A stretch of DNA of 5,977 bases, taken from the IMG/VR virus record IMGVR_UViG_2627853869_000001. One strand, given 5' to 3'. Source of the DNA: a virus (Duplodnaviria > Heunggongvirae > Uroviricota > Caudoviricetes). A program made the translations under genes and the position numbers. The stretch's first letter is position 1. Every line of letters begins with the position of its first letter. The notes beneath the pieces are model-generated. The model was not told where the DNA came from, made no database searches, and worked only from the letters and a program-made list of their open reading frames with translations. Shown piece after piece: positions 2,284 to 5,977 of this stretch.

Positions 2284-2326
2284 AAAAAGGGCGGCAGAGC
2301 AGTCACGGAGTAAAACTGATACCGCC
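2284..2326 (-). terminator. Intrinsic terminator hairpin of DicF (GGCGG…CCGCC stem followed by TTTTT)
   Basis: On the minus strand the GGCGG…CCGCC stem (+ coordinates 2290-2326) is followed immediately by a five-T run (+ coordinates 2284-2288). Confidence 0.55.
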
Positions 2327-2341
2327 AAACGTCACCAGAAA
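2284..2341 (-). ncRNA. dicF: DicF small regulatory RNA (ftsZ-targeting sRNA of dicB operon)
   Basis: Minus-strand sequence TTTCTGGTGACGTTTGGCGGTATCAGTTTTACTCCGTGACTGCTCTGCCGCCCTTTTT matches the DicF sRNA as recalled. It has a single-stranded 5' seed and a 3' GC hairpin followed by a T-run. Exact 5' and 3' ends are approximate. Confidence 0.75.
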
Positions 2342-3408: not shown

Positions 3409-3816
3409 TTATTGATGCTTGTTGCGTTTGCGAGCCTCTAATAGCTCGGTGAACAGGCGATTAAAATTCTCAACGCGGGCGCGGAGTTCGCTGAGTTGTG
3501 CTTGTTGCTCTGATTTAGGAAGTGCGCGATACAAACGCAGCATCTCTAACTCATCTTCCGATAAGTCTAGGGTACTATCGAGTGAAACAGGGGGAGCTGG
3601 TGTTTTGTCCTCGTCGCCAAACAGTATCCAGGTTGGTGAACATTGCAATACCTCGGCGAGGCGATGCAAATTTTGCCCGCGCGGGGCTGTATGGTCACTT
3701 TCCCATAATGAAATTGATGAGCCAGATACGCCAGCAGCTTTGCTTAAACCGTTTTGACTTAAGCCTACCTGCTTACGTCTTTCTCTAATGCGTTGACCTA
3801 AAGTTTTCTCGTTCAT
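3409..3816 (-). CDS. dicA: DicA-like HTH (XRE/CI-type) prophage repressor, 135 aa
   Basis: ORF MNEKTLGQRIRERRKQVGLSQNGLSKAAGVSGSSISLWESDHTAPRGQNLHRLAEVLQCSPTWILFGDEDK…ENFNRLFTELLEARKRNKHQ, with an N-terminal helix-turn-helix and divergent orientation to a cro-like gene. An in-frame upstream ATG at 3867 would add 17 aa, but the shorter start fits DicA length. No Shine-Dalgarno precedes either start, so the mRNA may be leaderless. Confidence 0.75.
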   Translation of the reverse strand: MNEKTLGQRIRERRKQVGLSQNGLSKAAGVSGSSISLWESDHTAPRGQNLHRLAEVLQCSPTWILFGDEDKTPAPPVSLDSTLDLSEDELEMLRLYRALPKSEQQAQLSELRARVENFNRLFTELLEARKRNKHQ

Positions 3817-3837
3817 ATTTAGATATCTTAATAATCC

Positions 3838-3867
3838 TTGACTTGAGATTCCTTGAGTGATTAGCAT
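3838..3867 (+). promoter_or_regulatory. Candidate rightward promoter (P_R analogue) for the cro-like gene: -35 TTGACT, 18-bp spacer, -10 TAGCAT
   Basis: TTGACT at 3838-3843 and TAGCAT at 3862-3867 sit upstream of the GGAGG RBS (3885-3889) and ATG at 3894. The -10 overlaps the operator motif. Confidence 0.45.
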
Positions 3868-3893: not shown

Positions 3894-4121
3894 ATGTTTA
3901 AATCAGACGTAATTAATTTTTACGGTACGAAAGCCAAAGTAGCGAAAGCTGCTGGCGTTGACCCATCTGCTGTTTCTCAATGGCAAGAGCTAGTTCCTGA
4001 AGGTCGCGCGATGCGTCTACAGGAGGCATCTGGCGGCGAGCTTCTGTATGATCCCAAGGTTTATGACGAATATCGTAAGACGAAGCGGGCGGGGCGGTTG
4101 AACAATGAAAATCACTCCTGA
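3894..4121 (+). CDS. dicC: Cro-like small HTH regulator (DicC/YdaS family), 75 aa
   Basis: ORF MFKSDVINFYGTKAKVAKAAGVDPSAVSQWQELVPEGRAMRLQEASGGELLYDPKVYDEYRKTKRAGRLNNENHS. GGAGG RBS precedes the ATG. It is divergent from the repressor; the family assignment is from recollection of the YdaS/DicC pattern. Confidence 0.7.
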   Translation: MFKSDVINFYGTKAKVAKAAGVDPSAVSQWQELVPEGRAMRLQEASGGELLYDPKVYDEYRKTKRAGRLNNENHS

Positions 4122-4626
4122 ACAGGCTCGTGAGGCTCTGGATGCCTGGATATGTCGACCAGGAATGACACAGGAGCAGGCGACGATATTAATCACTGAA
4201 GCATTCTGGGCTTTGAAAGAGCGCCCGAACATCGATGTTCAGCGTGTCACAGATGAAGGTGGCGCGGTTGATCAGCGAGCGCTTGGCGTTAATCGAGTGA
4301 AGATATTCGAACGCTGGAAGGCTATCGACACCAGGGATAAGCGTGAAAAGTTCACGGCGCTAGTGCCTGCAATTATGGAGGCTATCCGGATTAATGATTT
4401 CAGGTTGTATCGTGAAATTAGTGACGGAAAAAGCATCACGTACATGATCGCCGGGTTAAACAAAGAATATGGCGATGTGGTGGAGTCCGGACTGCTTTTT
4501 GCTGATCCTGCCGTAGTGGATCGTGAAACTGACGAACTTATAGAAAAAGCAATTGCTTTCAAACTTGCGTATCGACAGCAATACCAACAAAAAGCTGGAT
4601 GGAATTATGAGCCTTCTTTTTGCTGA
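4105..4626 (+). CDS. YdaT-family protein (173 aa) in the position of lambda CII; putative regulator
   Basis: ORF MKITPEQAREALDAWICRPGMTQEQATILITEAFWALKERPNIDVQRV…. Its start overlaps the cro-like gene by 17 nt. The gene order repressor / cro-like / ydaT-like matches Rac-type racR-ydaS-ydaT modules. Confidence 0.55.
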   Translation: MKITPEQAREALDAWICRPGMTQEQATILITEAFWALKERPNIDVQRVTDEGGAVDQRALGVNRVKIFERWKAIDTRDKREKFTALVPAIMEAIRINDFRLYREISDGKSITYMIAGLNKEYGDVVESGLLFADPAVVDRETDELIEKAIAFKLAYRQQYQQKAGWNYEPSFC

Positions 4627-5384
4627 ACGCCCACTGGTTATAAACACACAGCTTGCGATGAAGATTGGCTTAAATGAAGCCATTGTGTTGCAGCAGTTGC
4701 ATTACTGGTTGAGAGATACCAATTCCGGCATGGAATGTGATGGTGTTCGCTGGATTTACAACACAACGGAACAATGGCTGGAACAGTTCCCATTCTGGTC
4801 AGAGTCAACGTTAAAGCGCGCGTTTGCAAGTCTGAAAACGCTGGGGCTCTTGCGTTGTGAAAAGCTCAATAAATCAAAGCGCGATATGACCAATTTCTAC
4901 ACGATTAACTATGGGAGCGAGCTTTTAGATGATGGCAAATTGAGCGAATCCATCGGTTCAAAATGCGCCGCTCCATCAGGTCAAAATGACACGATGGAAG
5001 AGGTCAAAATGAAACGCTCCATTGGTTCAAAACGACCCAATGTCATCGGGTCAAAATGGCCCGATGATCCTACAGAGAATACAACAGAGATTACTACAGA
5101 GAATAAAAACACTTTTCGTCCGGAAGCTTCGCAACCGGACCCGCAGACGGCTGAACAGGATTTTTTAATCCGGCACCCTGGCGCAGTTGTGTTTAGTGCG
5201 AAAAAACGCCAGTGGGGTAGCCAGGAGGATCTGGCGTGTGCGCAGTGGATATGGGGGCGGATCGTGGGTCTCTACGAACAGGCCGCCAGTGATGATGGCG
5301 AGATCATGCGACCAAAAGAGCCTAACTGGACTGTCTGGGCCAATGATGTGCGCACAATGCGGATGCTGGATGGCAGAAGCCACA
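4607..5384 (+). pseudogene. Lambda O-like replication initiator gene with internal iterons, 3'-truncated by IS insertion at 5385
   Basis: ORF from ATG 4607: MSLLFAERPLVINTQLAMKIGLNEAIVLQQLHYWLRDTNSGMECDGVRWIYNTTEQWLEQFPFWSESTLKRAFASLKTLGLLRCEK…. It overlaps the ydaT-like stop by 20 nt and contains the iteron array. Beyond 5384 the frame runs into the IS terminal repeat, so the 330-aa track ORF is a chimera. Confidence 0.6.
4951..5066. repeat. Five tandem iteron-like direct repeats (~23-bp period, core GGT(T)CAAAATG with dyad-symmetric ends CATCGG…CCGATG); putative prophage replication origin
   Basis: TCAAAA(T/C)G cores start at 4958, 4981, 5004, 5027 and 5051. Units 4 and 5 are internally palindromic (CATTGG…CCAATG; CATCGGG…CCCGATG). 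The array is followed at 5067-5110 by a moderately AT-rich (about 68%), purine-rich stretch with three (T/A)ACAGAGA(A/T)T repeats. Confidence 0.6.
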
Positions 5385-5424
5385 TGAACCGCTCCGGGTT
5401 TCCTGGAGAGTGTTTTATCTGTGA
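5385..5424. repeat. Right terminal inverted repeat of the IS3-family element
   Basis: The IS terminus sits immediately 3' of the OrfB stop (5427-5429). The exact inner boundary of the repeat is uncertain because the other end is outside the window. Confidence 0.5.
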
Positions 5425-5426
5425 AC

Positions 5427-5977
<551 letters not shown>

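Follow-up and report, generated by a model that had tools for sequence, protein, structure and literature searches.

The initiator gene and the repeats within it

The window (the whole stretch of 5977 bp analysed here, from IMG/VR virus record IMGVR_UViG_2627853869_000001) is part of a lambdoid Escherichia coli prophage of the Qin/mEp460 type. Its right part carries the gene of an O-like replication initiator, and the subject of this work is a candidate replication origin embedded in that gene. The gene lies on the plus strand and extends from the ATG at 4607 to 5384, where it is truncated by an insertion sequence (IS) after codon 259 of 321. Three elements follow one another within it: an array of 23-bp iterons at 4928-5066, three tandem 12-mers at 5070-5108, and a palindrome at 5118-5140. 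An earlier note, made from the sequence alone, had set the limits of the origin at 4951-5110; the probable span is 4928-5140, which adds a degenerate iteron on the left and, on the right, the palindrome, which lies outside the former coordinates.

The iteron array features five 23-nt direct repeats with starts 23, 23, 23, and 24 bp apart, as judged by a direct-repeat search of the window, and Tandem Repeats Finder (TRF) likewise returns a period of 23 bp. The common core is G(G/T)TCAAAA(C/T)G. It has five matches in the 5977-bp window, every one inside the array, compared with a chance mean of 0.11, and none of 200 dinucleotide-preserving shuffles reaches five. Repeat search, TRF, and shuffles thus bear out the five direct repeats at about 23 bp that the earlier note had described; the core it had given them, GGTTCAAAATG, fits copy 1 only. 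A weight matrix built from 23 iterons of the window phage and related phages reveals in addition a sixth, degenerate copy in the 23-bp register, with a score of 17.3 bits versus 20-28 bits for the others, so that the copy number of five holds for the good copies alone. This iteron 0 (4928-4950, GATGATGGCAAATTGAGCGAATC) is followed on the plus strand by iteron 1 (4951-4973, CATCGGTTCAAAATGCGCCGCTC), iteron 2 (4974-4996, CATCAGGTCAAAATGACACGATG), iteron 3 (4997-5019, GAAGAGGTCAAAATGAAACGCTC), iteron 4 (5020-5042, CATTGGTTCAAAACGACCCAATG), and iteron 5 (5044-5066, CATCGGGTCAAAATGGCCCGATG). Relatives hold a better-preserved copy, GGTCAAAGTGA, at the position of iteron 0. Iteron 5 is the best palindrome, with the arms CATCGGG/CCCGATG, and iteron 4 has arms of 9 nt; the palindromic ends formerly ascribed to several units are found, as partial palindromes, in these two copies. 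The weight matrix scores iteron 5 on the minus strand at the same coordinates too, which indicates dyad symmetry. In the isolated phage HannyBb, whose complete genome has 45,272 bp, matrix matches form this one cluster only.

The putative DNA-unwinding element consists of three tandem 12-mers on the plus strand at 5070-5108 (CTACAGAGAATA / CAACAGAGATTA / CTACAGAGAATA...). The motif ACAGAGAWTAM occurs three times in the window (5072, 5084, and 5096) against 0.01 expected, and TRF returns a 12-bp period for the ACAGAGA repeats. The AT content amounts to 67% at 5067-5112 and 69% at 5070-5108, and the top strand of the tract is 65-69% purine (69% at 5070-5108), in agreement with the former description of a moderately AT-rich (about 68%), purine-rich segment with three ACAGAGA repeats. 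That description falls short in one respect: the stretch is a sequence-conserved 12-mer array and hence more than a matter of composition. Of all 40-bp duplexes in the gene, the one at 5076-5116, which overlaps the 12-mers, is the least stable, and it belongs to the least stable 0.64% of the window; the few stretches that would melt still more readily are AT-rich and lie upstream of the initiator gene. A strand-asymmetric AT-rich tract that melts easily therefore adjoins the last iteron, as in origins of the lambda type. In most related loci CAGAGAnTAC stands directly 3' of the last iteron in 2-5 copies, and 204 units yield the consensus C-W-A-CAGAGA-n-T-A-C. The interval from one CAGAGA to the next, over all related loci, is 12 bp in 112 of 122 cases; the remainder is 11 bp (six), 10 bp (one), 9 bp (one), and 24 bp (two). 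As a side observation, the bottom strand of each CAGAGA at 5070-5108 reads 5'-TCTCTG-3' and contains CTG, the start triplet preferred by E. coli primase. A role in primase start is speculation only and is weakened by the retention of the CAGAGA motif in hosts whose primases prefer other triplets.

The palindrome at 5118-5140, assigned to neither strand, reads GTCCGGAAGC-TTC-GCAACCGGAC and is complementary at 8 of 10 arm positions. A palindrome of the same 10+3+10 layout occupies the same place after the 12-mers in 27 Enterobacterales loci, with any type of C-terminal domain. The search pattern by which these were collected imposed the outer six arm positions and left the inner four free. One inner pair covaries: it is GC in 17 loci, CG in 6, TA in 4, and unpaired in 0 of the 27. 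These inner-pair changes are reached via non-synonymous changes in two codons. Overall, 88% of the palindrome cells are paired, versus 17-39% with the partner slid. Two loci, from Scandinavium (L059) and Edwardsiella (L023), combine iterons and 12-mers of the window family with a lambda-like palindrome (..GAATTCTG.CGAATCC..).

Conservation of the repeats as DNA

A period of 23 bp does not divide into whole codons, so that the iteron copies fall in all three reading frames. Copies 1, 4, and 5 encode (S/V)IGSK and fit the SIGSK-type linker formerly read from the repeats; copies 2 and 3, in the other frames, encode PSGQND and EEVKMK and do not. Identity by codon position was compared for ten loci of the same geometry, with identities of 72-97%. 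The part encoding the N-terminal domain (N-domain) features the usual coding signature, with identities of 0.88, 0.94, and 0.56 at positions 1, 2, and 3 and overall values of 0.79 for nucleotides and 0.86 for amino acids. This signature is missing from the iterons and the 12-mers. The corresponding triplets are 0.92, 0.93, and 0.82 for the iteron cores and 0.78, 0.81, and 0.78 for the iteron flanks, and the whole iteron region has a nucleotide identity of 0.83 and an amino acid identity of 0.68. For the 12-mers the positions yield 0.96, 0.79, and 0.97, with 0.92 for nucleotides and 0.77 for amino acids; the variable base of the 12-mer falls on codon position 2, which alters the amino acid. In six loci the 12-mers have periods of 9-11 bp, and a continuous open reading frame (ORF) passes through the motif in two or three different frames. 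The loss of the codon signature and the excess of nucleotide over amino acid identity indicate that selection acts on the DNA. As judged by these values, the repeats are kept as DNA, and the encoded peptide (aa 108-180) is a passive linker, predicted to be disordered.

A tblastn search with the N-domain against a phage collection yielded 155 records, including phages of Klebsiella, Erwinia, Pseudomonas, Vibrio, Staphylococcus, Bacillus, and Listeria, and a scan of one genome per species added 80 further loci. In the related loci, 2-6 matrix-scoring iterons immediately follow the N-domain coding part, and the flanks hold hardly any others; the iterons recur every 23 bp in Proteobacteria and every 22 bp in Bacillota. 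Hosts of the cassette include Escherichia, Xenorhabdus, Pantoea, Pseudomonas, Campylobacterales, Desulfuromonas, Staphylococcus, Geobacillus, and Brevibacillus. At least two matrix-scoring iterons plus at least two CAGAGA units directly after the N-domain coding part are present in 51 of 85 loci; 13 and 12 more pass one of the two counts alone, mostly because a diverged copy falls under the threshold, and 9 have neither, six of them being Bacillota genes with an acidic linker. These repeat-less homologues lie on Bacillus and Neobacillus chromosomes (L062, L068, L069, L079, L080, and L086, about 1780-1980), where iterons and 12-mers are lost together. Their origin may lie elsewhere, or the genes may be defective or have been domesticated.

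Absence of the repeats from intact homologous genes had been named in advance as the finding that would speak against an origin. The repeats are in fact present in register in the intact genes of HannyBb, mEp460-type phages, E. coli 55989, Klebsiella phages, and dozens of other species. In mEp460_4F5 the repressor and cII-like genes differ and the repeats are unchanged. The C-terminal domain (C-domain) varies as well, being of the lambda-O type in the window, Phg_2220_C in Klebsiella phage Kp4882-3, and DnaB_2 in Staphylococcus phage 96, and the downstream gene encodes, depending on the locus, a primase-helicase, a DnaB-like helicase, or a Ren-like protein. The candidate cassette thus travels with the N-domain and not with the immunity region, the C-domain, or the downstream gene. 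The gene of Kp4882-3 (L003:2456-3370) shares N-domain, iterons, 12-mers, and palindrome with the window and joins them to a C-domain of the Phg_2220_C type; its mosaic joint, like those of L059 and L023, falls inside the origin. Three further loci from metagenomic bins labelled Veillonella, Bacillota, and Collinsella (L012, L013, and L071) are an E. coli prophage segment with an N-domain 100% identical to that of the window and most likely represent binning contamination rather than host range. The origin segment is present in 1999 of 5426 complete E. coli genomes, at up to four places per genome. The initiator has roughly 4100 homologues; in most records it is annotated "hypothetical protein".

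The initiator protein and its match to the iterons

The intact initiator gene has 966 bp and encodes 321 aa. The copy of E. coli 55989, which encodes WP_000054487.1, is 100% identical to the window up to 5384, the point at which homology to intact genes ends. The homologue of phage HannyBb, gp43, is 97% identical and annotated as "replication initiation O-like protein", and the protein matches PHROG 391, "replication initiation O-like", with an E value of 8.5e-92. The iteron array sits between the N-domain (aa 1-107, 4607-4927, plus strand) and the C-domain (aa 181 onward). The N-domain is predicted to be a winged-helix DNA-binding domain: the AlphaFold2 model arranges residues 14-100 in the order H-H-b-b-H-H-b-b, with predicted local distance difference test (pLDDT) values of 56-74. 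The best Foldseek matches in the PDB are winged-helix proteins, led by the N-terminal domain of a staphylococcal plasmid RepA_N protein and a Rep-DNA complex, at weak E values of 0.04-0.07; they would assign a fold class only and no family membership. In the model of the intact protein, residues 109-180, the part encoded by the iterons and 12-mers, are predicted to be disordered. Profile searches with the intact initiator returned no Pfam family at E values up to 0.01 and, in NCBIfam, only a subthreshold DnaT match in the last 20 residues; a PDB sequence search matched the DnaT tail alone.

The C-domain is homologous to that of lambda O, with 34% identity over 153 aa (BLASTP, E 1e-26). The alignment pairs aa 142-294 of the intact protein with lambda O 130-270 and starts at the last iteron; of it, aa 142-259 alone survive in the window. 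The designation of the gene as O-like is therefore justified by C-domain and architecture and does not extend to the N-domain, which is not a Pfam Phage_rep_O domain and has no profile similarity to the lambda O N-domain. The last 17 residues of intact homologues (VNHISEPDTEIPPGFRG) nearly copy the C-terminus of E. coli DnaT (VNTVSEPDSQIPPGFRG; PDB 2ru8, 6aep, and 9zbt_D). In the HannyBb homologue this tail corresponds to L001:3470-3517; it is absent from the window because of the IS at 5385. Similar tails (..IPAGFRG and ..VPAGFRS) end the mEp460_4F5 protein and a Klebsiella phage protein with a different C-domain. No P-, DnaC-, loader-, or helicase-like gene is annotated anywhere in HannyBb, and the next gene in intact relatives is Ren-like/DUF977 (PHROG 142), so that the place directly downstream of the O-like gene is not taken by a helicase loader of the P or DnaC type. 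The DnaT-like tail together with the lack of a P or DnaC gene suggests a mode of helicase loading unlike that of lambda O and P, via a partner from the restart primosome of the host. For the extreme DnaT C-terminus, a paper on the preprimosome states no role (PMC13377028).

Protein and repeats vary together. The iteron core is GGTCA, GGGCA, or GGACA depending on the clade, and covariation with the N-domain was assessed over the 64 loci in which two or more iterons scored. Residue 67, a serine in the window, is the N-domain column that shares most information with base 8 of the core (mutual information 1.19 bits); the next column reaches 0.72 bits and is itself iteron-encoded. Ser67 goes with T in 30 loci, Asp67 with G in 25 of 25, and Lys or Arg67 with A or mixed A/T in 8. 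When column 67 is left out of the neighbour-joining tree, parsimony places about 10 changes of each character on it, and the two stay matched; the Lys, Asp, and Ser types are interleaved within Pantoea and its neighbours. Residue 67 opens helix 66-78 of the AlphaFold2 model, which is likely the recognition helix. This covariation is the strongest evidence that the initiator would bind the repeats embedded in its gene.

Comparison with known systems

An origin within the O-type gene of a lambdoid phage is textbook knowledge, and a specialist would expect one here. In phage lambda, iterons and a 38-bp AT-rich tract lie within O (PMC3349717); ori-lambda is likewise located inside the initiator gene and encodes the linker between its domains. 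The iterons of lambda, of which four are annotated, start 20, 24, and 23 bp apart and occupy the same relative place in O. The arrays of lambda and the window both feature a CAAAA(C/T)G centre between inverted arms. The order of elements is alike, with iterons, a purine-rich tract of low stability of about 39 bp, and a palindrome at nearly equal distances: in the window the iterons extend to 5066, the 39-bp tract covers 5070-5108, and the palindrome 5118-5140, whereas lambda has the palindrome GTCAGAGAATTC-tggc-GAATCCTCTGAC at the equivalent position. Gene order also agrees, with repressor, cro, cII-like gene, O, and ren-like gene, and the count of six iterons is that of Stx phages (PMC7466680). 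The architecture of ori-lambda inside the gene, as asserted by the earlier note, is hence borne out by position, order, and the lambda-O-homologous C-domain. The difference from lambda it had seen in the iterons holds for their sequence; the spacing, given the 20, 24, and 23 bp of lambda, is not really different.

Four features set the window type apart from lambda. The lambda O N-domain matches PF04492 (Phage_rep_O) at 5.7e-36, whereas the window-type initiator is without a match, and hhalign of the N-domain alignment against the lambda O N-terminus returns a probability of 0.1%, that is, no similarity. The family iteron matrix has no match in ori-lambda, and the window iterons are therefore not of the lambda type. 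The unwinding tract consists of sequence-conserved 12-mers, whereas that of lambda is generic AT-rich DNA. In lambda the P gene follows O; the window type has none, and its intact homologues end in the copy of the DnaT C-terminus.

A second likeness is to plasmids of the RepA_N family. The N-terminal domain of pSK41 RepA_N binds boxes central in rep, and the ori-encoded linker is dispensable (PMC5703833). As in the window, these plasmids combine a winged-helix N-domain of about 110-120 aa with central repeats in its own gene, and their ori-encoded segment is a linker that precedes an exchangeable, host-specific C-domain (PMC5703833). The RepA_N N-domain and the Rep-DNA complex (4pql and 5kbj) are the best structural matches of the model, at the E values of 0.04-0.07 given above. 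The window belongs to a phage and not a plasmid, has another repeat sequence, and differs in its 12-mer array; the initiator has no match to Pfam RepA_N (PF06970).

A third relative in layout is DopC, an O-like protein with a DnaT C-terminal motif (Brezellec et al. 2017, PMC5509034). Both DopC and the window-type initiator are O-like and carry the DnaT motif either instead of the usual O C-terminus or next to it. DopC is the product of a domesticated chromosomal gene, has a P-like loader as its partner, and lacks iterons according to its authors (PMC5509034), whereas the window-type initiator is encoded by a prophage gene with iterons and has no P-like partner.

Searches of the literature on iterons, replisome organizers, and lambdoid and Staphylococcus phage origins returned nothing on this family, with most subscription journals outside their reach. 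Apparently undescribed in the searchable literature are the iteron family with its Pfam-less N-domain, the 12-mer array common to Gram-negative and Gram-positive hosts, and the match of residue 67 to iteron base 8.

Origin and alternative explanations

The segment 4928-5140 probably represents the cis-acting theta-replication origin of this Qin/mEp460-type prophage, situated inside its own initiator gene; the probability of this reading is put at roughly 85%. The origin proposed in the earlier note is thereby supported, every comparative test that could have counted against it having come out in its favour.

Several points weigh on the other side. Support for the origin family is comparative and comes from sequence. 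Text-string searches for the iteron and 12-mer motifs found no paper that quotes them and hit unrelated primers only, and the examined records carry no rep_origin feature. The matrix that calls iterons was seeded from members of the same family, and the residue-67 covariation is drawn from related sequences subject to phylogenetic inertia, for which the parsimony count is the sole correction. The N-domain model is moderately confident (pLDDT 56-74), and its fold matches are weak (E at least 0.04). The unwinding region is merely 67-69% AT over 39 bp and less extreme than that of lambda. The palindrome of the window has two inner mismatches, and the outer palindrome arms were imposed by the collecting pattern. 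Six Bacillota homologues have the N-domain without iterons or 12-mers, which implies that this domain can exist without an embedded origin. Finally, the initiator in the window is truncated, and this copy is probably inactive.

Among the rival explanations, the one that survives best is that the array binds the initiator without being an origin and serves autoregulation, titration, handcuffing, or exclusion, replication starting elsewhere in the prophage. The residue-67 covariation speaks for binding and not for initiation, and plasmid-borne lambda iterons can silence replication (PMC3349717). This account is nevertheless improbable: the complete HannyBb genome has no second iteron cluster; directly after the array come the gene's least stable duplex and the palindrome, in the order and geometry of ori-lambda; and conservation comprises the whole three-part cassette, beyond the iterons.

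Still less probable is that the repeats are sites for another protein (immunity repressor or Cro, a host factor such as IHF or DnaA, or a recombinase) or a conserved joint for the recombination of modules. Homology to the Klebsiella phage does end inside the 12-mers and is followed by a different C-domain, which is a mosaic junction; such a joint is, however, a consequence of conservation and not its function. The repeats stay unchanged in mEp460_4F5 despite different repressor and cII-like genes, they accompany the N-domain in phyla that differ in their host factors, and the iteron core changes together with an N-domain residue.

That the repeats instead serve the protein, as a duplicated low-complexity linker (SIGSK/TENTTE) kept for flexibility, is scarcely tenable: the segment does encode a predicted disordered linker and TE-rich peptides recur in homologues, but one DNA motif yields the unrelated peptides SIGSK, PSGQN, and EEVKM in three frames, third positions are not relaxed, nucleotide identity exceeds amino acid identity, the 12-mers are read in two or three frames in six loci, and their variable base at codon position 2 changes the amino acid.

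A protein-level repeat, an operator site, and chance were all rejected as explanations. A scan of the window against Rfam matched DicF only and nothing at the repeats, so that an RNA element there is unsupported.

Proposed mechanism

As an origin, the segment would act in several steps. Dimers of the N-terminal winged-helix domain would bind the six 23-bp iterons, each of which is an imperfect inverted repeat around GGTCA-AAA-TGRCC with an A-tract, about two helical turns from the next; protein-DNA covariation, dyad symmetry, and position argue for this step. By analogy only, the bound dimers may form a bent nucleoprotein complex like the O-some of lambda. In the step that is most uncertain, the resulting stress would open the adjacent 39-bp CAGAGAnTAC array, as suggested by the same analogy and by the low duplex stability. 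The initiator may also read the 12-mers, probably as single-stranded DNA, as lambda O does with its AT-rich strand; lambda O binds single strands of the AT-rich region (PMC7466680). Such reading is considered because the 12-mer sequence is conserved across hosts with unrelated helicase loaders, which AT-richness leaves unexplained. DnaA and the DnaA-trios provide an analogy for recognition of single-stranded DNA. The palindrome directly to the right would be a conserved third element. The lambda-O-like C-domain or the DnaT-like tail would then recruit the helicase machinery of the host, and the origin-encoded segment, aa 108-180, would act as a disordered linker only.

A wider proposal goes beyond the origin itself and is tentative, to be given less than even odds. 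The 12-mers may be a sequence-specific element read by the N-domain, probably in single-stranded form, and N-domain, iterons, and 12-mers may constitute one portable origin cassette mounted on interchangeable C-domains, with a code of residue 67 and base 8 setting its specificity. Such a cassette appears to be kept from Enterobacterales and Pseudomonas to phages of Campylobacterales, Staphylococcus, and Geobacillus.

Prophage context and state of this copy

An exonuclease gene on the minus strand runs off the left end of the window. It contains imperfect tandem repeats with a 21-bp period at 12-118 (TRF scores 54-76), a period that would encode a heptad-like peptide repeat. To its right come, in this order, ydfD, dicB, the antisense small RNA DicF directly beside dicB (2289-2340, minus strand; Rfam RF00039, 76.7 bits), ydfC, and ydfA; DicF and the adjacent dicB confirm a prophage of the Qin type. 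Toward the initiator gene follow a DicA-like helix-turn-helix repressor gene (3409-3867, minus strand), a P22-Cro/DicC-like gene (3894-4121), and a YdaT/cII-like gene (4105-4626).

The initiator gene is interrupted by a partial IS3-family element of the IS1203/IS629-like kind (5385-5977, minus strand) with a transposase ORF at 5427-5945 on the minus strand; matching records carry the annotation "IS3-like element IS1203 family transposase" from 5385 onward. The IS removes the last 62 residues, 260-321, and with them part of the C-domain and the tail. The reading frame continues into the IS end for about 53 codons (ORF to 5545), which yields a chimeric product, and public data hold an exact 279-aa match to the product of the window (P0001, 91 member sequences). 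The origin DNA of the window is undamaged and does not differ from that of strains whose initiator gene is complete. The origin is probably orphaned, and the copy inactive unless a related phage or initiator acts in trans; in the window it would fire only with initiator supplied by a related phage.

Implications

For the window itself the message is modest: an intact origin beside an IS-inactivated initiator marks a defective prophage. Beyond it, a prophage replication module present in 1999 of 5426 complete E. coli genomes probably has in this segment both its origin and the determinant of its specificity. Since one genome can hold the segment at up to four places, co-resident prophages might conceivably activate one another in trans. 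The match of residue 67 and iteron base 8 provides a testable recognition rule: changing both together should switch origin specificity, and such a switch would also alter incompatibility and trans-activation between co-resident prophages. The origin cassette would be common to phages of Gram-negative and Gram-positive hosts, with a conservation of its putative unwinding element that exceeds generic AT-richness.

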